Of a stretch of DNA of 64,000 nucleotides, positions 4,421 to 51,826 are shown in pieces; the stretch's first letter is position 1, and each line of letters starts with the position of its first letter. The notes under the pieces are model-generated. The model ran no database searches, was not told the DNA's origin, and worked only from the letters and a program-made list of their open reading frames with translations. Both the position numbers and the translations under genes were made by a program. Location: assembly GCA_012295275.1 (NCBI GenBank), contig CM022665.1, forward strand, positions 25,420,001 through 25,484,000, in the 5' to 3' direction. Source of the DNA: Chrysomallon squamiferum (Eukaryota > Animalia > Mollusca).

Positions 4421-5343
4421 GAAAAAAAAAAGAAGCAAAACAACAAACAGTAACATAAATTGCTGCTAGCTTCTGTAATGGTGCTGTTGATACAGGAGCA
4501 TTATATGATGCTGTACGTAAATCTGCAATAAATCTATGAAATGAACCGATTTAATAACTATGTATGCATCAAACTGGCATACAAAAGCAATCGGTAACAA
4601 CGACACGGTTTTGAAATGCATGTAGTTATATGCTATTGTATACTAAAGGCTAATAGTAATAGTACTACATATTTTCCATCTAAAAGGTTAATAACTATAT
4701 CATTATACAAAACCGTCCGGGAGGCAAACGCCATATCTGTGCTTGCCCTCGTTTTCAAGGTTAATGATTTGTTGGGTGGGGTGTTTTTTTTTGTTTTTTT
4801 TTTAACTAATGTTTAGGGTATATATTTTCTGAAACTGCCGGGTAACAGTTTATCACCATTGAGCAATTTGTGGTAGAGGCTAAATTCAACATGGCCGCCA
4901 CCGAATCGGTGAAAATGTTTTCTTGGTGTCTTTGTAACTAGATAAGATAATGGCATGAATCACAGGTCTTTTCATACGTTTACAGGCTATGATTTTCCTA
5001 ATAAAGCTCAAAAGAAAATCAAGACGGCCACCTAATTTTATTCGTTGCAAAAAATACATATTCTCGAGAAGCGATAACCAGCATTGCATTTTAAATGTCA
5101 TCTACTTAGAATATGTGAATTATAGTCTTGTCATTTCTGGTGTTTTTTTCATGTAGTTGCATTTAATGATATGGGTTTTGATATTTTTTGCATTCGCATG
5201 TTGACCTTTAGCTTTTCGGTTTAATATACATTCAACATTCGAATAACTCACAACCGATTTAAATGTGCCTTTAATTATTAACAAACAGTCAAACGATGCG
5301 TCTTAAGTCTTAACTTCAGTAGCAAGTTGGAGTACATCCTCAA

Positions 5344-5815
5344 ATGAAAAGGTCGATTTTGATGGAGGTAACATCTAGAACATTTATAAAGAGGAAATTC
5401 GGGTTACGATCTCCGGGGCAAAAAATGACAGACACACAAGCTGGAAAAGAGCAGGCAACGTCATTTATGGCTGCTTCATTTAAATGCACGAAAACAAGCA
5501 AAGGGTACACATCAACACCAACGTTATGCTCTCTGCCATCAGACCTCTATAGGAGAGACGCGAATCCACCAGAATTGGACGTTGAGAAATATGGATGGTG
5601 GAAAGATGAAGCCAACAAATCATTTGTGCTTACGACAATCCCGGATACAGATGCGGCTTGTTAGATATGAATGCATAAGGGACATTATTTTTCGTTCATC
5701 CATATCTGGTTTCAGGAGTGCTAATCTGTCTGACACTATATTCTGTGCTTGCCAAATCCAATTCCAAATCATCCCAAATAGATCTTACGTACATATATGT
5801 TTGGTGATTGAATAA
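5344..5815 (+). pseudogene. Frameshifted transposase C-terminal fragment (Academ-like, Cys-rich tail)
   Basis: Two overlapping ORF-track frames give ...PPELDVEKYGWWKDEANKS... then ...LVRYEC...SANLSDTIFCAC. Several expected Cys codons appear mutated. Confidence 0.55.
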
Positions 5816-6085: not shown

Positions 6086-7405
6086 GGGTAAGGTGGGGTA
6101 ATTCTGGCCTCCTTTTCCATTCAACCTCACCTACAGTTTCACAGATAAAAGGAAACAAAAAATGGAGTGAATAATGTGTAGTATATCTATTTCTGCTTCA
6201 AAATACACAAACACTATATGCATGGTGCTTACACTTTTGAAATGGGAACCAAGTTAAAAATTGATGTCAGGAGCCAGATTTGCCCCGATTATTTGGGGTA
6301 AATCTGGCCCCCACATTCACGATGTATTTTGGTCCTCAAATTTTTACTGATTATTACTATGTAATCATTGTTTACTACTAACAATAATTAGTTCTAATCA
6401 TAATACAAGTCAGATTGAAAACTTCAATAAACTAAACTTGACAAATATGGCGCAAGAATACAATATCTTTCAAGTCCGCACCAGCTCGGATTTCGCAAGG
6501 ATCAACACACTACCAATTTGGGCACCCGTCACATCCTATGAACTCGTCAGAATTCATTCCATCATCAACTCTGAACAGAGTTCACATTTTTCTTGTGTAT
6601 CTACTACATCTCTGTCTTCTAGTTCAGACTCGTCACCGTCAACGTTTTCTTTGACTGCATTCACCGGTTCTGCTGTAGCATTCAAATTGAACTGCTGTTT
6701 TCACTTTGGTATCTTCTACTGTTGTTTTTTTTTTTTTTTTTTTTTTTTTTTTGATGTTTTGCCTCTCTCGCCTTTGATTTCTTTGTCTTTTCTTCCTCGT
6801 CCTTCGTCTTCTCTGCCAACTCTTCTTCATACCTCTTGACACTTTCTTCTTCTGTCAATGCCTCGGCATACCTCATCCTCTTGATTTGATTTGAAGTTTG
6901 ACAGCGTGCCCCACCAGATGGACCGTGGACTTTCAGTTGTTTGAAAAAACTTAAATAAAACTCAGAATGGACTATATCAATGCCAAAATTATTGATTTCA
7001 CCACCAAATACGGGGGCCAGAATTGACCCCAAGTGGTGGAGTAAAATAAAACACATATTTCTTGACTAATTACCACATATTAATCAAGTTTATTCTGCTG
7101 AACTTAATATATGATTATATGTTTATCTGTTATAACTTATCACTAACCTTATGTATATAGGACTAAAAAAATAACACTCACTTTTGAAACCTCAAAACGC
7201 ACTTTTTTTTACAATCTTGTTGTTTTCATTACTTTCATGGCCACTGTACTTCACATGTAAATGGCTGATTACCTACATCCTTTGTTCTAATGAGAGATAG
7301 TAAGGTTCTATTTATATCAACAAAGTTCCTGAAATCAAGGCAGAGCAGTATAGTAGCTGCAAGTCATAATATACCTCGGGGGCCAGAATTACCCCCACCT
7401 CACCC
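6086..7405 (-). mobile_element. Internally deleted pogo/Tc1-mariner-like DNA transposon nested in the Academ-like element
   Basis: TIRs GGGTAAGGTGGGGTAATTCTGGCC (6086) and GGCCAGAATTACCCCCACCTCACCC (ends 7405) are flanked by TATA on both sides. Internal copies of the TIR core lie at about 6270-6310 and 7012-7030. The minus strand encodes a Lys/Glu-rich helix and a degenerate PHD finger. Confidence 0.75.
6432..6900 (-). pseudogene. Transposase C-terminal relic with degenerate PHD finger
   Basis: Minus-strand translation ALTEEESVKRYEEELAEK... then, across frameshifts, CELCS..DDGMNSDEFIGCDGCPNW*CVDPCEIRAGADLKDIVFLRHICQV*. Confidence 0.6.
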
Positions 7406-10020: not shown

Positions 10021-11999
10021 TAAAATTGTCACCGAATGGGGTCAAACATTGGTTTTTATCAGTTTAAAGTAGTACACTAAAGTTTTGTGGTGTTTAATAC
10101 ATATGTATTATCTACGTTGGTGTGTGTGCGTGGGTGTGTGTGTGTTTTGCTGGTATATATGTTTCACTCTGTATGTCAATCTGTGCATTTAATGTACATA
10201 TAATGAATGAGCATAAAATAATGTTATAACGAGACAGAGACGAATACATGGATATATGTTTTTGTGCAGATATTAACTGTATTAAGGCATGCAAGAGAAA
10301 GAAAATTAAAGCTGAGTACTTTAAATAATTACATGTAATAACTGACTTGCAAAATAATAATAATAACAACAACAATAGTAATAGAGAATGTATTAATGTT
10401 GATGACTAAATTTAAAATACATTTAACTTTGTATAATGGCATAACTTTATTGCACTTGCACAAATTAAAAAAAAAGAAACACAATTAACGTATGTTTCAT
10501 GTTCGATGCCAGCTGCTTCGTACTGGTGTCGTTTCGGTATCGGTTAAATGAAATTCGACATCAATAAACATTATGAAACAACTGTTATCGGACACAAAAC
10601 GCAATTTAATGAATTCATTAAAATGAAACTGTACTGCGTCTTTACTGCTGTGTATTGCAATAGCATCTGACCGCAAAGTCAAGGTGACTCATTTCGGAAG
10701 CGAAACAAATTGTTACATGGACCGAAATGCATTTTGTGTCTCTGTCGACGTCGGCTCTGGTGTTGATGTCGAAATGTGTTAATGGATTTAGTTAGAAGTG
10801 TTGATTTGTTGAGTATCACTATAATGTAATGAGGGCCTACGTTGTGGATTTTCTAAAAAAAAAAAAAAACGCACCAAAAAAATTAAACGCAGTGTATATG
10901 TTATATACATAACACATGCATTTGTACACGATAAATAAAATTTAAATAAATAAAGAGGCCCCAAAAAGAAGGACGGAGGACAGAACGCTAAATTTTTACT
11001 TAAAATATAAAGTAATAAACAATGAAAAATAAAGAATAAAGCTGTATTTAACAAATACAAATTAATACGCTTCTTAAGTAGGGATTGTTTTATGTTTATT
11101 AATCCATTTAAAATTCTTGCAATACCTGAATATAATACACTGGGGCAAATTAGGCTCCTTGATAATACAACTTAGAAAAACATGCTTAAACCTTTAATGA
11201 ATGTTTGATTACATATGTTTTCTTATAGTTTGATATGATAATGAATGAAAATGAGAGTAAACTGAAACAAATAATAACTCACTGTGAGAAGTACTTATTA
11301 CTGGCGGAAACTTAAACAAACTAGCCAGTTTTTAAAATAATAATAATAATAATAATAACTTGTTTTCCGGATTTTTCCGATTTCTGGAAGCATATAAATG
11401 GTTCATTACCTGTAGTCGTTAAAAAAAAAAAAAAAAAATATGGATTGCCTCCAACGGCTCTCATATCATTATTAAAATATGTCAACAGAAATCGATTTTT
11501 AAAACCTAAACTTTGGTATGATAATTCAATCTTACAGCCTGTTAATACACACGATCTTTGAAAAATAATTCAACAGAACATAAAGGAGTAAATGATTACG
11601 AATTTATATAAACGAAGTAGATGACTGAGTTAAAACAATATATATTTGGGGTGGGTTATGGGCTTCTTTTTTCTTTCTTTTTATTATTATTATTTTTTTT
11701 TTTAAAGAAAGAAAGAAAAACAAACAACCTAGTATAGAAAATACTAATAGAACGCTAGTAACTGATAATATAATCAGTTATAAAATTTTAAATGAATACT
11801 GTATGAAATAACTAACTATATGCGACTGGTTCGAAGATTATGTATGACAAAATGTTCAGCGTGTGATGACGGTGTCTTAGTAGAATATGCTTTCAAATGT
11901 TGGTTACAATTGATGGTATGAGCCATATATATCTTATATATATATACTCTAGGTTATTGGGGTTTTTTTTAATTTTTATTTATTTATTTATATTTAGTG

Positions 12000-12000
<1 letters not shown>

Positions 12001-12068
<68 letters not shown>

Positions 12069-12070
12069 TT
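12001..12070. repeat. (ATT)n/(TTTA)n compound microsatellite
   Basis: Directly visible tandem runs. Confidence 0.85.
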
Positions 12071-12299
12071 TTTTATAGATTTGGGTCACTGAAACCAGGT
12101 TTTGATATATATAATATATGTTTAACCTCATCGCCGCATCATTTTATATTAGTCAAAGTTACCCCGTAAAAAAAAAAAAAAAAAAAAAAATTGAAATAAA
12201 AAATAATAATAATAAAAAAAAATATTCTTACAATAATTTAGAAAATAATATAGACATAAAAAAAAAAAAAAAAAAAAAAAAAACAAATATCAAACCAAA

Positions 12300-12519
12300 A
12301 CTAGTTTATGTGATGTCGATTCGCTCCAGTTCGGAAAATAGCGACAAAAGCCGACTTTTGTCGAACAAGCAGCCATTTATGTCATGTATAGTGGGTTCAT
12401 GAATACGGAAGGATCAAGTTATTATGTACTTAGTCGAAGAATCGGCATAAATTGTGAATTTGTGAACTAATGACCTAACCTAAGCGTTTACTGATTTTTA
12501 TAAACATTTAGTCAGAATT
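12300..12519 (+). promoter_or_regulatory. CpG-rich DCAF5 promoter/5' UTR
   Basis: Dense CpGs in an otherwise CpG-poor window, an ETS-like CGGAAG near 12406 and GCCATTT near 12372, immediately upstream of the ATG at 12520. Confidence 0.5.
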
Positions 12520-15500
12520 ATGGCTACATCATATCTCAGAAGAAACATATGTCAAAGAAAACAGAGTTTGTTGAATCTACTGAATGATAGAATATTAAGT
12601 TGTGAGGCCCAAGTTGGAAAAGAGTTTGTCCAGCAGCGTATTTCGTCGACCAAAACACTCTTTTCACGTGATCTGAAATCTCACTTTGGATGCATTAATG
12701 CAATAGAATTTTCTAATAATGGAGAGGAACTTATTATTTCAGGTATACATAATGATAATGAAAAACAGTTTTAATTACGACGCCGATAGAAGCGATATTT
12801 CATTATCTGGCCAAATTGTCAAATATTTTATCAGTTTATGTTTAACATGCTGCAAATTCGTTTACTTATTTATACCATCTGTTAAGTAACTTGTTTTATT
12901 AAGCGAGTTAACAAATACCAAAACAGTCATAATAGCAGACCTTTTACGTATATTTAGCCAAAACTAAAAGGTGTTCACATTAATGAACGTGTACGGTCAC
13001 ATCAGTCATCATAAGGCACACATGGACAGACCACACAGAGATAAAGTTGAAAAGTTGACTCAGATAGTACAGGGTTCGGAATGGTCTGCGTTTTATCAAA
13101 TATTTTTTATTGAAATGCATTTATCAATATTTTAATTTGATTTTGTTATTAAATTTGCACCAATTCAAAATAAGCAATTATTAATGTTGTATCTCCATAT
13201 TGGCTCTTAACACATAACAAATGGATGAGGTGTGAAACAATAAAGTGTGTTAATCTTCTAATACTTACACATTCTGGATCACTAAGGCCCCTTGAACATA
13301 CACCCTAAACAAATATGTGAATGTCTGAGTACGGATGTTTTCTTATGGAAAAAAGTGCATGAAATATTATTTTGTTAATAATTATATTTAGGCAGTTACA
13401 TATTTTTTTCATCATCATTTAAAATGTCAAAAAGATATATATTTTCATTTAATTTGTATTTAATTCAGAAATATTTCTTCATTATGTTTAGTTTTAAAAT
13501 AATATGTATTTTTTCTTCTTTTTATATATAAATTTAGATTATGTCACTGATTTATTTTGATTAGGAGGTGATGATCGCCGTGTCTTACTGTGGAATGTTT
13601 GCAAAGCTATGCATGATATTGGTAAACCTACTGCCATGAAGGGTGATCACAACAGTAACATTTTCTGTCTAGCTTTTGACAACTGCAACAAGAAAATTTT
13701 CTCTGGAGGTGTGTACTTTTACTGTTGGTCTGCACTTTTAATATTTCTGTAATTTTAGGTTCCATGCATAATATTCAGTTAAAAAAAAACAGAAAAAAAA
13801 ACAACTAATTCATGTAATAAACATTGTATATAATGGCCAAGAGAGATCTATTAACTAAAGGCCTACACTCTGTTTTGATTCTTGCACTATTAATTTTTAT
13901 CTTATTCACTTGTTTATTATTCACATTTATACTTTTGCAAATCTTTAATTTACCTCTATTTTTTTTTTTTTTTAAATAGACATACTGAATATTAATACAT
14001 AAGCACAGACACACACATACACTATAAATTGAAAACCCAGTAAGTAATTGTTGCTTTTAATAATTTTATTTGTGAAGAATAGGAACATTGTTCTTTCAGG
14101 AAATGATGAACAAGTTATTGTGCATGATGTTCAGACGTGAGTAATTTGTAAAACATTCTTTTACCTTTTAACTACAAACTGCAAATATGTTTATCTATAT
14201 TTATCTATCTATCCATCTGTCCACATGTATAGATAGATAAAATCAAAGCAGATGCATACACACAGACACACATAAAGTAAAAAGAACAGTAGACATAATA
14301 ATAAAGATAAAATATATTACATTGGTCAGCTTAATGGGAAAGCATATGCATTTCACATTTGAGTTATTTAATTCATTTGTTTATTGTGAATGACTAATAA
14401 TAAAATAATGCTATTTAATATTATCATAATTTATAAAAATACCTGTGTAAATTATAAATGATGTATAAACATTGCATATGAAAATATTTACTTTAATGGC
14501 TGATTTTCTTACACAGTGGTGCCACCTTGGATGTTTTCCGTCATGAAGATGCTGTGTATGGTTTGTCAGCAGACCCAAACAATGACAGTGTGTTTGCCAG
14601 TGCTTGTGATGATGGACGCATTTTGATTTTTGACATTCGAGAACCACCAAGCAGTGGTGAGATTTCTTACATTCAGTTGTAATAATACTTAATTATACCA
14701 TCTTGAACAAAATTCTGTTTAAATTTGATTAAATTGTGAATGCTGAAGACCATTGTTCAAATCAAATTTATAAATATGGAGTTGTCCTTCAGTGAAGAAT
14801 TGACGTAGGAGGAATTATAAAGAAAAGTATTTTCTTGTTAAATATCAGGTCATGTTGTTTTTATTTTTAAATGGCAAATTTGAACAAAAACCAGGCATGA
14901 AAAAGATTTACTTGTAGTTTTGGTATTTCAAATTTTTACTACAAGTTTAAATCTAAGCAAGGTTATCTGGAATTAAGATATCGATTTTTGTTCCTGAATT
15001 CAGTATTTATTTATATTTTTAATGGATAGATAGTCACACTTATGGTAAACAAATGAAGCTTTAAAAAAAAAAAAAAAAAACTGTAGGAATTGCAATTATA
15101 AATTACAGTGCTATATTTATTCCTTAGATCCGTTCTGTCTGGCAAATTATACTACTTCCATGCATGCTGTGATGTATAATCCTATGGAACCAAGGCTCCT
15201 GGCAGTTGCTAATGCCTGGGAGGGAGTTGGATTGTGGGATATACGAAAACCAAAAACGTATGTTTCAAATTGCATTTCACATTCTTTTTTGGGGGTGTTT
15301 TTTTATAAATTTTCTTATAACATCTTACATTTATATTAATAGATATGAGATATAAAATGAATAAAATACTAAAACTACGATTTTATCTTTTAAACTTTAG
15401 TCTCTTAAATGAAAATTCAAAGAAATGAAAAAAAAAATCTTCTGATTATGTTTCAGTATGTATAATTGTCGATGATGTGCTGACTCTCAACTATCAAATA

Positions 15501-18500
15501 ATTCTTTCAACTCTAGATAAAGCATATTGTTACCACTCCTCTTAAAAATGTTCACTTTAAATAAACTTTCATTTTTCACAATATGAAAAAGAGATAAAGT
15601 ATACATTAAATATTAAATAAATCACATGAACTATATACATTTACATTCCAACTTTTGTTTCAGATGTGTGTTAAAATATGGTGGCAGATACACAAAAGAC
15701 AGCTGTATGAGTGTTCGCATTAATAAACGTGGAAATCACATCATTGCACTGCGTCGACGCCAGCCACCAGTTCTCTACAACATTCACAGCACTAAAGTGG
15801 CTTGTGAATTTGACCACAGTGGCTATTACAATTCTTGTACCATGAAGAGTTGCTCATTTGCTGGGGACAATGATCAGGTGAATAACAGATAACTCCTTTT
15901 TACAATTCCCATATCCCAATTTAAACTGTCTTATCTAACATGTGGCTTATACATTAACATTGATAACAAAATTAAAACTGTTTGATATTTATCAGTAGAT
16001 ACCTAATAGAGGTTTATACATTTTATCCCCTAGTAATCAAAAGATAAGCCACAAGGGTATTTACATATCATATACAAAATGTGAGAACATTGTGATCTAA
16101 AATATAAACATTGATATTAAAAACTGTACCAAAAGAGAAAAAATTGTTTAGAGTTACGTTTGTTTTTCTTTCAGTACATTTTGTCTGGATCAGATGATTT
16201 TAATCTCTACATGTGGAAAATTCCAGATGATTTAGAGAATAGTGAGTTTTTAATTAACAGACTATATTTTAAAAAACATTCCTTAAATATTGTGTTTGGA
16301 GTGCATTTCTAAACTGGGATTTTTAATACAAAAATAAATCTATATAGCCATCTATTTATCAGTAATTAATAACATAAAAAAAATATAAAAATTTTTTCAT
16401 TAAGATTAATTCTGAGAATAATTATTTAAAAAAAAAAGAATTATATAACATTACTATATATAATAAAACAGAACATTTTTGTCCGAACATTTATGGCCGA
16501 ACTTAACAAAATATTGAGATGAAAAAGCTTTTTTCTATTTTATTAGGATACTTATTATTATTATTATTAAATTAATAGCAAGACATGTAGATGAGGCTCA
16601 TGCAGTTTTAAAGGGTCACAGATCAATAGTGAATCAGGTGCGCTACAGTAATTCTGACAGTCTCATTATTTCATCAGGTGTGGAAAAAGTAATCAAGGTA
16701 ATTTCTCTTCATACACAGGCAAAAGAACATGAACTTTTTAAATGACAAAATTGTTTGTGTTTTTTTTTGTGTTTTTTTTATTTTTTATTATTATTTATTT
16801 AAATTTATTGTGTGTTTTTTTAAATCATCCATTAAAATGGAAATAATGCTATTTTAAGTTCATTTCTGTGAAAGAAACAAAATTTTCAAATATATCTCAA
16901 GCACATGAGAAGGGTCAAAATCCTCTTTTCCTCTTGTTTCATATTTGAGTAAAATGTGTAGACCTATGTATAACATTAATTACAAAATGCTGAATCCAAT
17001 TCAGTTGTTAATATAAACATTTCTTTTCATATTGCCAAGTTCTAGGAAAATGATGAAATTCATTTTAATTGTTAACAAAATCAATGATTATTTTTTTTAT
17101 CCTAATAAAAAAAATCAAAAAGTTTAAATTGTGTATCTTTAATAATTTACTTTTCAGCTATGGAGTCCATTCATTCTGCCTGCAAGCACTGCAGGCACAC
17201 ATAGTGAGAGACCTGTCTATACACCAGAGGAATATATTAACTTGGTGTTAAGAAGTGGTCACATCATGTCACATGACTATACTCAGAAATCTACTGAAGA
17301 GGATCCAAGGATGATGGCTTTCTTTGACAGCCTGGTCCAAGGTGAGGTGGAATATGGAAGCACAGAAGAAGATCTTTCCAGTGATGAAGAAGAGATGTTT
17401 GAGCTGATGATGCAGGCAAGATATGCCAATCGTCGACAACCTGAAAATGCTGAAGTGATTTCTAATGAAAGTGTTCTTGCTGAAAATGGTCACAGTTACA
17501 GTGTTCTTAACAATGGAAGTGTCCCACCTGACCCAGAAAGTAATGCAAACCATGTAAATCAACAAGACGATGACAGTGTACAGAGTCCTTCATCTTCTGA
17601 AGATGAAACAGAAACTGAGTTCAGCACTTTCACTCTTGCTTTTGCTAGTGTTATGGCTGCCCAGACTATTGGAGGTGTTTCTAACAGTCACGACAGAGTT
17701 TTGGACAGTCACACAGAAACAGTACTTGGAAATGAGTCTTCTCCACAACCTGGCGTGCTGGATGGACAGTTGGCCGATACTCAGAGAAAAAGTATTGCAG
17801 AAATTATTGCACAGAACAGACAGGAAATTCAGAGAGCAAAAGAAATTAAGAACAGATTGTTACAAAATAAGAGAAAAAATCCTTCAAAGACAAGACAGTT
17901 ACTGGTAACATCTTCAAGTTCTGACTCTGATTCAGAGCAAGAAAGTCCTGATTTGAAATCATCCCAGCCCATGCCATCCAGCAAACAGGACAGTATAAAA
18001 GAAACAATGAACAGTGCAGTAAAGTGTCACTTGAAGAGACTCAGAGATCTTAGGAACAAAGCATTAGCACCTGAATGTGCTACAAGTGATCTTGACCCAA
18101 GTCCCAGTAAAAAAGAAAAAGTTGAAGAAGGTGGTTTGCCATTGGTAATTCCAAGTTGTTCTAACATGTCTAAAGAAGTCAGTGGATCAGGTGTTGGACA
18201 ATACATATATGAATTGGATTTGAATCATAACACTGCATGTAGCCAGAACAGTTCAGAGAACAGCACAGTTATCCAAACATCCAACAATTTGAACAGTTGT
18301 GATTCAAATTCTTCTGTTACAAACAATGGCTATTCTTTGGCAAACACTGTGTTTAATGAAACACAGACTAACTCTGCATGTGGCAATGATTTGTTGACTT
18401 CTTGTGGCACAGATCCTTCTACAAGTAATGGTGATAGCCCAAAAAACAGTGAATCACCCAGCAAAAATAACAAAACTAAGGGTAGTAACAATGAAAACAA

Positions 18501-18600
18501 ACAACCAGTTTGGTCAGAGTTCAAACGTTTTAAGAACAAGGTAGAAAGAGCAAGACGTTACTATCGCAAACACACTTCAAGTGATGATGACACACAGTAA
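12520..18600 (+). CDS. DCAF5: DDB1- and CUL4-associated factor 5 (WDR22), WD40 protein with long disordered C-terminus, 838 aa
   Basis: Exons 12520-12742, 13565-13708, 14100-14136, 14517-14656, 15128-15257, 15664-15877, 16175-16241, 16579-16697 and 17158-18600 sum to 2517 nt in frame. Diagnostic motifs: HFGCINAIEFSNNGE, SGGDDRRVLLWN, HNSNIFCLAF, GYYNSCTMKSCSFAGDNDQYILSGSDDFNLYMW, LKGHRSIVNQVRY, SHDY...EEDPRMMAFFDSLVQ. Confidence 0.96.
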
Positions 18601-28479: not shown

Positions 28480-29460
28480 AAATAACGTGAAGTATTACTT
28501 TACTTCGCCATTATTATTCTTCCGTTAGTATTTTCTGAACAGTTATTGAGCATCGGTTTACACATTGTGAGCATGTCTCTTCATTTGAGGTGTCAACAAC
28601 TGAACAATGTAGGTAAAGAAACTTCATTACAAATGATCTTTATTGATGATTTTCAGAAACAGCAATAATGAATTGCAAGGAACTAATTTATTGTTGTTGT
28701 TGTTATTGTTATTATTACTACTACTACTGTTTTTATTTTTATTTTATTTATTTATTTATTTATATATATATATATTTATTTATTTATTTATTATTTATTT
28801 ATTTTTTTCTTCTTCTTCAGCTTGACATATTTTCCAATATTTTTTATTCTCCTTTGTTAAAGAAATTAACATCGAAAAGTATATATTTATTTTATTCAAT
28901 CTGCTTATCTTATTTAGTTATTATTATAATATTATCCACATACAAAAATAATATTTTTACTGGAGTTGTTTTGTGTATGCTCTCTAGCTATGATCATGAT
29001 CCCGTTATGATTTCTGAGCCATAACACCGGGTCTAAGATTCTGGAATATTTTCCAGTACATAATTTTACTGAGTTCACAACAGACTTTTGTCCGTTAAAT
29101 GATATATATTCGTCATATATTATGTCTTCTGCTATTATTATTATTAGTAGTAGTAGTAGTATTTAAATAACCTTAAAACCCCTTGTTTTCACATTTAAAA
29201 AGCATTATTACTAATAGCAGTAGAAACAACAGCAGAAGCGGCGGAAGATGACCTGTTGTTAATGATTTTCCTGGAGCGTTAGCGTTTTGGGTTCCAAAAA
29301 CGAATAGCCATAGCATTTACGGGAGATCTCGAGATTTTGCGAGATAGTCCGAACCTGGAAGAAAAACTTATAATAATTGATCATTTTGATATATTTGGTG
29401 AGATAATGGTGAAGTAATTCTAAATCATACCATTAGTTTCAATTCTGCTTCGCAAACAAG
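28480..29460. promoter_or_regulatory. Putative divergent promoter region and non-coding first exons of AP4M1 (-) and Akt (+)
   Basis: Minus strand: CGGAAG (28524-28519), ATGGCG (28511-28506) and donor GTAAAGT at 28503. Plus strand: GCGGAAG at 29241, palindrome ATCTCGAGAT at 29326-29335 and donor AAG|GTAATT at 29461. CpGs are retained locally. Confidence 0.5.
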
Positions 29461-37161: not shown

Positions 37162-37785
37162 CACACAATATATATATAATGCTTAAATTTGAAAATAAAT
37201 TTATGTTTCTAAGTTAGAAAATATAGCATACACATAAGCAGGATATCCTCTTCCTGTTTTTATTTGAAATACACTTTCTGTATTGATGCTAGTAAGTTTC
37301 ATCAGTAAACACCATTTAACTAGGAAGTATTCACAACATACAGAGAAAATTATAAGAACAAGTTGGAGTAATATTTGTCATTTTATGTTAAATTTACATA
37401 AGCCATTTGAAGCATTCTTTCACATTATATGCAAGTTAGATAATTCTTATTCCTTTTTTCTCTGTTTATAAAAAAAAGAAGAAAAAAAGTCACATAAATA
37501 ATTCTTATATTGATAATTAATTCTTAGTACAAATTTATACTCAATAGAATGTATACTGTTTTATTATTATTATTATTATTATTTAGATTACATTCATCAT
37601 TAAAACTTACTAAAAATGTACAGATCACAATTGAGAATTTGCTTGGTGATATTACTGAAAGTGCAATGAATTTGCCTAGCTATGGAGCTGTATTACATTA
37701 AATATATGTGTTCATTATAAAGATTACATGTTTATGCTGATATTTGTTTTGTTTTTTTAAATTTAGGGCTGATTTGGCCACCGCA

Positions 37786-46950
<9,165 letters not shown>

Positions 46951-47845: not shown

Positions 47846-49179
47846 TTACTGTTATTTTGAACATGCACAAAAGTTCCAGAGATTTTAACATTTTATGGAT
47901 TTGCTTAGAACAGTTTAGATCAGATTTTTGCTTTGTGATTTATTTGCTTTATTTGTATTTTAAAATAATGAATATTTTCTTTTTGTTTTAACTAAACACT
48001 AAAAATATTGTTTTACTTTTAGTCAGAATAGAATAAAAAAAAATTAAGTTGCAGTGCTGCTTAATATTTTAAATGTATTCGATATTTCTGTAAATACTGG
48101 GACAGAAAGAAAACGTTATGTATATTTGATGTTTTTATGATAAATAATAGGAATAAATATCAGTTTATTTTATAACTTTCAGTTTTAAATTTTATTAAAT
48201 ACATTTTCTGCAACAAAAATAGTTGGAGTTGTTTGTATTTTGTCATATTAAAATAATTTTTGTTTGAATTTGGTTTACATAGATTTTTTTCAGATATCTG
48301 TTAATATTTTGATTTTTTGTTGGGTTTTTTTTTTGTTATAAATTGGAACTACCCATTGAAAAATTTATATTTGTAAAGAGCATTTCATAGACCTAAGATA
48401 AACATTGGTAATGATAATTAATGTTAAAATATACCACAGCCAAAAATATTGTTATATTATATTTTCTTTAAAATGTTTTTATTTCTTTTATACAATTTGT
48501 ATAAAAAAATGTTTCTGTGGGAAAATAATATATATGTTAATGTGTTTTGGTTTGTTTTGTATACTTAAACATGAAGAATAATCAGGCATGGACTGGCTGT
48601 AAAATAATTAAAAATTAATTAAAGAAAAAAAAAAAAAAAAAAAAAAATAATTTTTAAGTTGTAGAATTCAGTTAACAAATATTGTTTATATGTACAACCT
48701 TTTCTCATATTCAACATCTTTCCACATATTTTATAGCCATCTATGTTGTTTTTGTTTTTTTAAATGGTGTCATTTTGGTTTTTCACTTGCATAAGTTAAC
48801 ACATATTTATATCAGTTTAAGATATGGTTACATTTAATTTATATATATTTTTTAAAGATTAGTACATGTATTAAAATGGCAATTAAATTAAAAATTTTTT
48901 TTTTTAAATCCCCCTTTTTTTAACATTTTATATACTGCTTATTTTTAATAATAATAATAATGTACAGGCAGTTTTCAGTAGCAACATTAACCTTTTGGGT
49001 TTTTTTTCTCTCTCTTATACTGAAAGGAGTCAGAGGTTTAAAAAAATTTTTTTTTTTAAAAACTGCACATTCACACTCCACCACAACAAATCTACATTGG
49101 AATGAGACTCAAAAATTGTTTTATCATTTATGTGTTTACTTATACTTTAATTTTTATTTTTTATTTTTTATTTTTTTAG

Positions 49180-49422
49180 ATAACTCCTCCATGGAAGCCT
49201 GATGTTAAAAGTTCGTGGGACACAAAATATATCCCTGAAGAGTTTGCACAGGAACCCATGCACTTGTCTCCAACAGAAGCCTGTGGAAGTCGCGAGCTTG
49301 AGAGCATCAGTGAAGATGGTGAACTTCCCCACTTTGACCAGTTTTCTTACCACGGTGGAAGCAGAGGTAGTTTTGGAAATTACCTCAGTGCTTCAGCCCA
49401 GGCTGGGAATGAACTTTTTTGA
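49180..49422 (+). CDS. AKT: Alternative terminal exon B of Akt, encoding a second AGC C-terminal tail (485-aa isoform)
   Basis: A strong T-rich acceptor ends in TAG at 49179, in phase 0 like exon A. The frame is open and reads ITPPWKPDVKSSWDTKYIPEEFAQEPMHLSPTEACGSRELESISEDGELPHFDQFSYHGGSRGSFGNYLSASAQAGNELF*, homologous to exon A. Confidence 0.88.
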   Translation: MTPPWKPDVKSSWDTKYIPEEFAQEPMHLSPTEACGSRELESISEDGELPHFDQFSYHGGSRGSFGNYLSASAQAGNELF

Positions 49423-51826
49423 ATGCCTTTTTCTTTTGTTCTTTTTTAATACCTCTTCACTATTATGATTATATTCTTCTCCTTTTTTTAAATTGATAAA
49501 AAAAGAGGAAGAGACTTCAAACTAAATTTTTAAAATCATGTCCAACCAACGAGTTGTTTATTATATATATAAATATATATGTATATGTATATTTATATAT
49601 AAACATATAAATTTTGCAGCAAGTGCTGCTTTGTTCTTGAATCTGGCATTCAACTGTATTGTTTTGTTTATGTTTGATGTAATGATAAATGTGTAATTTA
49701 GTCTAATTTTGTGAAAACAAAAGTGATAGATTTCTTTTGTGTTTTGATTGTTATGTATTACAATGATTATGGTATTCTTGCAAGAATTTTTTTTTTTTTT
49801 AAATTATTAAGAATTAATCCAAGAATTCCATATGTGACTAAGAAGATAATAATAGTAATAATAATTAAATAACAAAAAAAACACCAAAAACATTATCACT
49901 TACATCTCATCACACATACACTTTAATCTTGAATGACAAGTATGTCACAGAAGTTAATTTTTAATTGAATATGAAAATAGTTGAAAATGCAAACTTTTTA
50001 TCCTAAGTATAATTAGGTAACTGTTTTGTGTATGTATGTGTGTGTGTGTCTGTGTGTATGCACACACACACACTTTGTATAGATAGTTGACAACTGTTGA
50101 TCTGCCTGTAACAGATAAAGTGTTTTCATTTGTTAAGATATAAATCAGGTGCACCAAAATAAGTTGTTAAATTTTTAAATGGACGTAACTCATGCAAGCC
50201 AGATCTGTAGAGCACCATGTTTTGATTGGGTATTTTGTTTTGTTGTTTTTTTTTGGCCCACAAGCATTTAAGACAGTTTCCAAAAAAAAATTAACTATGA
50301 AATATTAGTTTCAAAAATAAATGTGTAGAAAATCAGAAGTTCTTGTGTGAAATAACAGCTTATTTCCTTTGTTTTTTTTCTTCAGGGATTCATTTGTTCA
50401 ATATCATGTACAAATTAACTATTTCACCATGAAATATGATTCATAATTTGTTATATTCTGTGAAAGATTTTGATCTGTGTAAATAATTTATTTGAAATTG
50501 ATGTTAATTTCATCATGAACATGAACTGGGCATGATCCAATTTTATTTTTTATTTGTCTCACTAAGATTTAATTTATGTAAAAAGATCAGTAGCTAGTAA
50601 TTCATAAACATAGCACCATTTAATTTAATTTAACTTGTTCTTAACAGAATATTTTATATTATTTCAAATACATAAATATATATATAAATATATATGTATG
50701 TATGTATATTAATGTTCTGGTAGAATACTGCACTTTTTGTGAAGGTTTAGTTTTGCTTTTGAGATCACTAACTTTATAATTTATTTTCTGAATGGACTTT
50801 GCTTCTTATAATTTTCTAATGGAATTCAGTGTAATATTTTAATGATTCTTGTTTTTTTATTTCAACATTTCTATTACCATCTTTTAAAGTGATCAACATA
50901 TATCAGTCCTAAAAAACGAACATAGAACAAAAATACATATAAAGGAGAAAATATTTAAAATTGAGGTTAAAACTAAATGTGGACACATGAGAAATCAAGC
51001 TTTTCTTCTTTTCTTTTTTTTTTAAACTCAGTTACAGTAGGTTGTTTTTAAATTTAAAAGTTTACTGTATTCAGATTCTTCTGTAAATTTTCTTGTAATT
51101 CAGTATCAAATAAGTGGATTTTGTCCAGTTGTTATTCATGATTCAAATGCATATTTGGAATAATATTACTATTGAGTAATACATCTGGTATGTATAAATT
51201 TCCTGGTGAAAAATGAATGTTCTGTTAATAAAGAACACTAATTAGTATTTAGTTTCCTTATTTAACAACACACAACAGAAAAGAATTGCTACATATCTTT
51301 GAAATAAATAATACATTGATTGATTTTAATATAAACAACATCAAAACATCTGGTATTTGTCAGTGCCTTGATAAGTGGTTTAAATAATGGCAGCTTGGAT
51401 GATGGCTTTAGATCCTTCTATCCAGTCTCTGCAGTTGCCCACAATAATTGACAATAATAGAAATTGCCACTTATTAATTATTCATGGGAAAGTTTTACAA
51501 ATTCTTATTTGAAAATACTAACAATATTTTTTTTTTGCATTAACTATTTTGTTTTGGCATACTTTTATTTGAGAGATTTGAATATATATTTAGGGTAAAA
51601 AAAAAAAAAATGAATCAATTGTTTTTACAAATTATGCTTTTTGTATGTAACTATTTTTTCATGCTAAGAAGTATATTCAAGGCTTACTTAGTGTTTCAAT
51701 TAACGTAATTATTGTTTATTTTTATTGTTTGATCCAGACTGTTGATGGTGAAATATTACATAGGCTAAAACTTAATTTTACAAATATTTCATGTCCAGTA
51801 AATCAAATATTATAAACCCTGTATTG

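Follow-up and report, generated by a model that had tools for sequence, protein, structure and literature searches.

An Akt gene with two alternative last exons

The window, by which we mean the whole stretch of 64,000 nucleotides analysed, is AT-rich (GC content 27.6%) and carries an Akt gene on its + strand. From the ATG at 37786, ten coding exons ending at 43441 encode a core of 405 residues, composed of a PH domain and a kinase domain. Downstream of coding exon 10 lie two homologous last exons, A and B, both in phase 0 after an AG, and the frame is open without internal stops with either of them, giving 480 residues with tail A and 485 with tail B. The features of the gene are the following.

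29429..29460, +: 3' end of an upstream non-coding Akt exon; the loose end of RNA contigs (X1, X3) before coding exon 1 maps to 29429, and the sequence borders show AG/GT directly after the exon
37767..37843, +: Akt coding exon 1 with ATG 37786; joint 37841-38747, GT..AG, in 3/3 RNA runs
38749..40403, +: PH domain and linker, three exons (38749-38874, 39780-39891, 40307-40403) with AG/GT borders and open frame, also backed by RNA contig pieces and joints
40816-40947, 41244-41309 and 41778-41969, +: kinase domain exons 1-3 of six, GT..AG joints in RNA contigs
42261-42389, 42702-42916 and 43354-43441, +: kinase domain exons 4-6 of six, GT..AG joints in RNA contigs; 43354-43441 is exon 10, common to both tails
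46723..46950, +: last exon A, the canonical tail, 84% identical to Haliotis A tails
49156..49179, +: acceptor of exon B, T-rich (18 T in 20 bases)
49180..49422, +: last exon B, 80 residues and stop in one frame, with an RNA junction from exon 10

The translated core begins with a PH domain, which is followed by an AGC kinase domain. It is 87% identical to the Akt of Haliotis asinina over 404 residues and 87% identical to record P0001, which carries PF00169 and PF00069. The catalytic motifs and the activation-loop Thr (the PDK1 site) are intact, the activation loop of the kinase domain (40816..43441) reading TFCGTPEY. Of the 11 acceptors that were scored, that of exon B is the richest in T; that of exon A has 8 T and 14 pyrimidines. 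AATAAA or ATTAAA words follow both stops, such words being common at this AT-rich composition, and a third copy of the tail was absent from the window by tblastn. A and B are tandem duplicated alternative last exons: they are homologous, share the same phase, and each has its own acceptor and stop.

RNA contigs link the end of exon 10 to the start of exon B (mapped to 49184) in 3/3 RNA runs of one study (X1, X2 and X3), and 97-100% of the sampled words of 49180-49560 were present in 4 RNA runs, again of one study. Among the RNA contig matches listed, GT..AG joints were found at 8/9 introns between the Akt coding exons, and the link between exons 2 and 3 was seen as adjacent contig pieces. These contigs show presence only, and a junction from exon 10 to exon A was not among the 24 of 92 loose ends listed. 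Tail B is encoded by an alternative last exon that is spliced into Akt transcripts, and isoform B arises by exon choice within one gene rather than from a second gene.

Elsewhere in the window, exons of a WD40 gene lie at 10600-18600 on the + strand, with DCAF5 as the best solved match (E 5.6e-18, 14497-14679) and a weak WD40 match in Pfam. A 484-codon open frame at 17146-18597, which has no Pfam match, may be the last exon of this gene. At 5323-5812 and 6351-7065 there are open frames, 110-160 codons long, in which GC is raised; the three tested gave no Pfam match, and these frames are perhaps remains of repeats or transposons.

Tail B compared with tail A and AKT1

The motifs of the two tails are located as follows.

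46729, 46768, 46804, 46870 and 46936, +: starts of PPFKP, RYFDD, ELTPP, FEQFS and TWTA in tail A (translation)
46789-46791, +: Thr of the TIM (TOR interaction motif) in YFDDTFT of tail A, which has Phe-Asp, a TP turn motif and the hydrophobic motif FEQFSF
49186..49200, +: PPWKP of tail B, PxxP kept, Trp replacing Phe (AKT1 F425)
49228..49248, +: YIPEEFA of tail B, Ile-Pro at Phe438-Asp439 and Phe442 kept (alignment to AKT1); YIPEEF at 49228-49245 (translation)
49246-49248, +: Ala of tail B at the position of the TIM Thr443 (alignment to AKT1)
49261-49275, +: HLSPT of tail B (translation)
49267..49272, +: Ser-Pro turn motif of tail B, AKT1 T450-P451 (alignment)
49333..49350, +: hydrophobic motif FDQFSY of tail B, Ser 49345-49347 corresponding to AKT1 S473 (alignment); FDQFS at 49333-49347 (translation)
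49408..49419, +: C-terminal NELF of tail B, a [DE]-x-F end
49420-49422, +: stop TGA of tail B

Within the window, tail B is 43% identical to tail A over 67 residues (tblastn E 1.9e-12). With human AKT1 chains it aligns at E 1e-6 and ungapped through PPFKP...YFDEEFT...ITPP, and against Pfam Pkinase_C it scores 19.8 bits, slightly below the cut-off of 20.9. The AKT1 numbering of tail B was anchored on P424-x-x-P427 as given in the available part of PMC5989616. An earlier note on this DNA had claimed that tail B lacks Phe-Asp and the TIM Thr while keeping the hydrophobic motif, and had mapped the tails onto AKT1 F438, T443, T450 and S473. All the motifs it named in tails A and B were recovered in place, in a single + strand frame, and the anchored alignment to AKT1 agrees with both the loss and the mapping. 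Isoform A has Phe-Asp at AKT1 F438-D439 and isoform B has Ile-Pro; FD-x-x-FT with a phosphorylatable Thr is absent from tail B, which reads IP-EE-FA. The PxxP (PWKP), the turn motif SP and the hydrophobic motif FDQFSY are all present in tail B, the Ser-Pro lying seven residues past the TIM position, the same spacing as in AKT1. The element that contains AKT1 F438-D439 is called the active-site tether, and F438 lines the ATP site.

Isoform B has the PH domain, catalytic motifs, PDK1 site, PxxP, Phe442, turn motif and hydrophobic motif in common with the Akt/PKB of human (AKT1-3), arthropods and nematodes. Unlike these, its tail has Trp in place of F425 and Ile-Pro in place of F438-D439, lacks a Thr at 443 and has a different C-terminal end. 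Set beside the TIM-bearing mTORC2 substrates Akt and PKC, tail B has the same second Phe and the same spacing of turn and hydrophobic motifs, whereas the first Phe, the Asp and the acceptor Thr are all missing. Engineered AKT1 T443A copies just one of these three changes. In AlphaFold2 models of the B and A isoforms of the gastropod Gigantopelta aegis (44-row alignments, mean pLDDT 71.7 and 59.6), pLDDT falls below 50 over most of both tails; in a fold search with the B-isoform model AKT1/AKT2 ranked first. Judged by domain order and catalytic motifs, isoform B is an Akt; lacking Phe-Asp and the TIM Thr, it is a variant without the canonical tail.

Distribution and conservation of the B tail

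Homologues were collected with tail B alone (22 candidates scored), with an alignment of five B tails as query (45 matches among 7,989 candidates scored, plus cluster look-ups) and by a search of 50% representatives (56 matches). B-type tails were found in gastropods, bivalves, octopods, a chiton and annelids (Owenia, Arenicola), and also in nemerteans (Lineus, Tubulanus), the orthonectid Intoshia linei and flatworms. The tail of the window is 81% identical to that of Haliotis and 65% to that of a chiton; the closest named relative is the snail Gigantopelta aegis, which makes the source animal likely a gastropod related to it, and the two B tails differ at 6/80 residues. A and B records were compared in 25 species pairs picked by hand; in 23 of them the final 300 residues of the core are identical, the two exceptions being Ostrea, with a second internal variant, and Bradybaena, with records on different contigs. 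The RefSeq Akt isoforms of molluscs and nemerteans (Gigantopelta aegis X1/X3 vs X2, Haliotis X1 vs X2) have the same two tails on one core, under automatic names only ('isoform X1/X2'). In the search with five B tails, the precomputed Pkinase_C label was absent from all B-type rows but one. Two cloned Haliotis Akt records are of type A, and a third-party record from Lymnaea is of type B.

In Bradybaena similaris the cores of P0021 (B) and P0093 (A) are identical at 261/300 residues and lie on contigs of different length; there are possibly two gene copies that each keep one tail, or two annotations that each catch one. Babylonia areolata (P0012 and P0104, both seen as B-type) and Nucella lapillus (P0249 and P0056) have two Akt records on different contigs, which suggests a second Akt gene in neogastropods. 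Outside the tail, isoforms of Octopus (481-490 residues), Littorina (489/490) and Haliotis show differences of one residue to a few, likely through splice shifts in the N-terminus or in the linker between PH and kinase domain (compare 40404-40816 in the window). Several fish and nematode Akt records that rank high in the search on PH and kinase domains but have odd length or 49% coverage (P0196, P0204, P0205, P0201, P0217, P0219, P0227, P0229, P0234 and P0243) suggest repeated kinase segments, which would be either duplicated exons run together in the model or mis-annotation.

We compared 214 distinct tails (93 B, 120 A and 1 other), which are related sequences and not independent events. B tails were defined by the Trp together with the Ile/Val change, so that 93/93 have both by definition; the Trp was found in no tail that has Phe-Asp/Glu. 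Among the 93 B tails Tyr is present in 93, Ile in 85 and Val in 8, the following Pro in 90 and Phe442 in 92, while 92 have the turn motif [ST]P at AKT1-like spacing and 88 the hydrophobic motif. The spacing between PxxP and the TIM position is unaltered in 89/89 B tails. At the TIM position itself ten residue types occur (Ala 59, Gln 11, Lys 8, Leu 5, Glu 3, Ser 3, and Thr, Ile, Asp and Arg 1 each), whereas the residue is Thr in 119/120 A tails, the lone exception being a false match of the search pattern. Ile/Val-Pro is kept in 89/93 B tails and Phe-Asp/Glu-x-x-Phe-Thr in 119/120 A tails. In B tails the scaffold is thus held and the tether fixed in a second state, with the phospho-acceptor site free to drift. 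P0146 is the sole B tail of the 93 with a TIM Thr (YIPEEFT) and three more have Ser; these are possible intermediates or reversions. The earlier note had asked whether YIPEEFA is conserved in orthologs and had named, as one of two outcomes that would overturn it, that the substitutions are not conserved and B is inactive. Changes of this type are kept together with the tail across phyla, and with the substitutions conserved and exon B spliced that outcome fails.

The free C-termini also differ. Once tails that lack the hydrophobic motif or carry long extensions (15 B and 6 A records) had been set aside, a [DE]-x-F end was present in 44/89 distinct B tails and 0/116 A tails; it occurs in molluscs, Tubulanus and trematodes and is missing in 45/89 B tails (cestodes and several annelid-like ones). 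Counting [DE]-x-hydrophobic at the free C-terminus, the numbers are 46/89 B and 0/116 A, the window B tail ending in NELF. Further end motifs are YL[SAQ] in 53/89 B tails and S[FY][ED]xxW in 35/116 A tails. The [DE]-x-F end resembles PDZ class III ligands. The suggestion of the earlier note that the different ends may recruit different partners gains from these counts, as an end conserved in B and never seen in A would fit a partner-binding function.

A tree was built from 51 tails over 72 columns; many of its forks are unresolved, and a branch with support of 100/99 has the 25 B tails on one side. With the four diagnostic sites masked, 23 B tails are still on one side (96/95); the masked tree leaves out three rows, namely both tails of the window and that of Intoshia. 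Arthropod, nematode and fish tails sit opposite the B group; the named rows include no rotifer, chaetognath, cnidarian or invertebrate deuterostome. This arrangement fits a single duplication of the last exon before the split of flatworms and molluscs, so that tail B likely arose once.

In a search drawn and scored on the PH and kinase domains only, the best 120 of 1,723 comprised 70 Phe-Asp tails, 41 B tails, 5 other and 4 without a tail, the five others being four Phe-Glu tails with Thr and one B-like tail. Named flatworm records, listed by hand, gave 44 B, 0 A and 10 without tail (54 records, many from close Schistosoma species, yet covering trematodes, cestodes, Dugesia and Macrostomum). 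Named octopod records gave 9 B, 0 A and 1 without tail (10 records, with 15 of 19 cluster members listed), and named ecdysozoan and vertebrate records 42 A, 0 B and 2 without tail (44 records). The Lingula and Patella clusters had A only. Flatworms and octopods have therefore likely kept B alone, as judged from protein records rather than genomes. With 10 sequences per group, no kinase-core columns were found that compensate specifically in the B-only lineages; the core columns that set these lineages apart from arthropods do the same for two-tail species. That the tail appears to be ancient, and the sole type in flatworm and octopod records, is the main point beyond the earlier note.

How an Akt without the TIM may work

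The Akt of Schistosoma mansoni has the B-type tail. Record P0281 (586 residues) reads YVPDEFK, so that Lys takes the TIM position, and agrees with the published numbering (P517-W-K-P520, D385FG, T401, F561EQFSF566). The enzyme (Smp_073930) shares its tail type with window B, having PWKP, YVPDEFK, a TP turn motif, FEQFSF and the end GDTF; unlike the two-tail gene of the window, it has no A-type record among those found. According to PMC4266776 the gene is single, and the cloned protein, in activated mutant form, was phosphorylated at T401 and drove oocyte maturation, which is an indirect read-out of activity. Immunoprecipitated worm Akt phosphorylated GSK-3; the native band ran at ~52 kDa rather than 68, and an anti-pS473 antibody gave no signal (PMC5989616). 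Both papers predate the TIM; their available parts note the PxxP or the hydrophobic motif, call the structure conserved and do not mention the lost Phe-Asp or Thr. In the part of the S. mansoni phosphoproteome tables searched by gene id or short motif (PMC7089424), an Akt phosphopeptide was absent among the matches listed. The mollusc isoform B is likely an active kinase, and Akt likely works without the disputed TIM 'priming' threonine.

Published work disagrees on whether mTORC2 activates Akt by priming the TIM Thr443 or by acting on Ser473 directly. One proposal is that mTORC2 phosphorylates the TIM (FD-x-x-FT, T443) and thereby primes Akt to autophosphorylate S473 (PMC10903481, PMC9555796). 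AKT1 T443A is reported to have lower basal activity with mTORC2 activation and pS473 retained, and kinase-dead AKT1 is still phosphorylated at S473 by mTORC2 (bioRxiv 10.64898/2026.01.08.698367). The complex is described as docking via Sin1 on the N- and C-lobes, local sequence mattering little (PMC13089146), while a review has the TIM sequence required for binding of the Sin1 CRIM domain (PMC9555796). F327 of PKA, the matching Phe, helps to bind ATP, and F327A is almost inactive and unstable (PMC2650257).

We regard it as reasonably probable that tail B is a shared, spliced last exon that arose once and gives an active Akt without the TIM, one that is activated by PDK1 and by mTORC2 acting directly on the hydrophobic motif and is tuned differently from isoform A. 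Selecting A or B would then mean selecting an acceptor together with a poly(A) site. Isoform B, having the same core, would depend on its PH domain for recruitment and on PDK1 for phosphorylation as A does, and mTORC2 would dock through Sin1 on the shared kinase lobes and phosphorylate the turn and hydrophobic motifs directly, without a TIM step. Such direct activation is suggested because the PH domain, PDK1 site and docking lobes are shared with A and both remaining mTORC2 sites are kept. The ATP-site contact is probably looser but kept, since the residue is always Ile or Val, a large or branched hydrophobic; Ile would close the adenine pocket less tightly than Phe. From this looser contact we would predict a lower basal activity, together with a steeper need for hydrophobic-motif phosphorylation, and a changed sensitivity to ATP-site inhibitors. 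The exchange of Phe for Ile may cost more than assumed, given the nearly inactive PKA F327A (PMC2650257), and B is possibly a poorer mTORC2 substrate, given that the TIM is said to be needed for Sin1 CRIM binding (PMC9555796). The [DE]-x-F end could tie isoform B to a PDZ-type scaffold.

Other explanations deserve consideration. A and B might be alike in kinase regulation, both exons being retained because they supply different C-termini and 3' UTRs, with the Trp, Ile-Pro and TIM changes compensating each other or near neutral and the ends serving location, partner choice or mRNA control. In vitro T443A merely lowers basal activity, each end has its own conserved motifs, and seemingly one-tail lineages exist for both types (B in flatworms and octopods, A in Lingula and Patella), which suggests that either tail does the basic job. 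However, two fixed states at the ATP-site contact (89/93 B and 119/120 A tails) exceed neutral expectation, and we find equal regulation unlikely, if worth keeping in mind. It is less likely again that B has escaped mTORC2, its hydrophobic motif being phosphorylated by itself or by another kinase so that an mTORC2-independent Akt results. The loss of the proposed priming consensus FD-x-x-FT speaks for such an escape, and PKC isoforms without a TIM are regarded as mTORC2-independent. Yet the turn motif, an mTORC2 site in AKT1, is kept in 92/93 B tails, the docking surfaces reported for mTORC2 lie on the shared core, and kinase-dead AKT1 is reported still to receive the S473 phosphate from mTORC2. 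The earlier note had raised the prospect of an altered mTORC2 dependence, stability or inhibitor sensitivity of isoform B; in its strong form the altered mTORC2 dependence is disfavoured, because T443A is reportedly still activated by mTORC2 and the docking lobes are common to A and B.

In species with both exons B might also be a weak or inactive isoform that serves as a scaffold or as a competitor of A, as the lack of the Phe and the nearly dead PKA F327A could indicate. This seems to us distinctly improbable: B is the sole type in flatworm and octopod records, the B-type enzyme of S. mansoni is reported to be active, and the exon B junction is the one seen in the RNA of this species. The Pfam score under the cut-off could be read as a sign of a decayed duplicate or an assembly artefact, to which we give practically no weight with the frame open and the tail 81% identical to Haliotis and 65% to the chiton; spliced in RNA, open in frame and conserved across phyla, tail B refutes such a reading.

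The active Akt without a TIM remains the reading we prefer for tail B. As a wider claim, we judge it slightly favoured that a large share of spiralians has a splice switch between a TIM-bearing Akt and a TIM-less one whose ATP-site tether is rebuilt, and that flatworms (blood flukes and tapeworms among them) and octopods run all Akt signalling without the TIM. The RefSeq two-isoform models under automatic names and the flatworm Akt studies were already known. We found no published account of a two-tail Akt or of a TIM-less invertebrate Akt in a literature coverage that takes in few subscription journals.

The split of molluscs, annelids and flatworms is Cambrian or earlier, and by the comparison of tails the TIM would have been absent from this Akt tail since before it. 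A natural TIM-less Akt on the same core as a canonical isoform would allow a clean comparison of A and B for the disputed TIM model, and studies of mollusc Akt that start from one cloned cDNA may cover one isoform only. If the wider claim is right, living animals would show that Akt needs no TIM priming, and the ATP pocket of the parasite Akt would be lined differently from that of the human enzyme. Schistosome Akt, which is studied as a drug target, differs from human AKT at an ATP-site residue, a possible handle for selective inhibitors.
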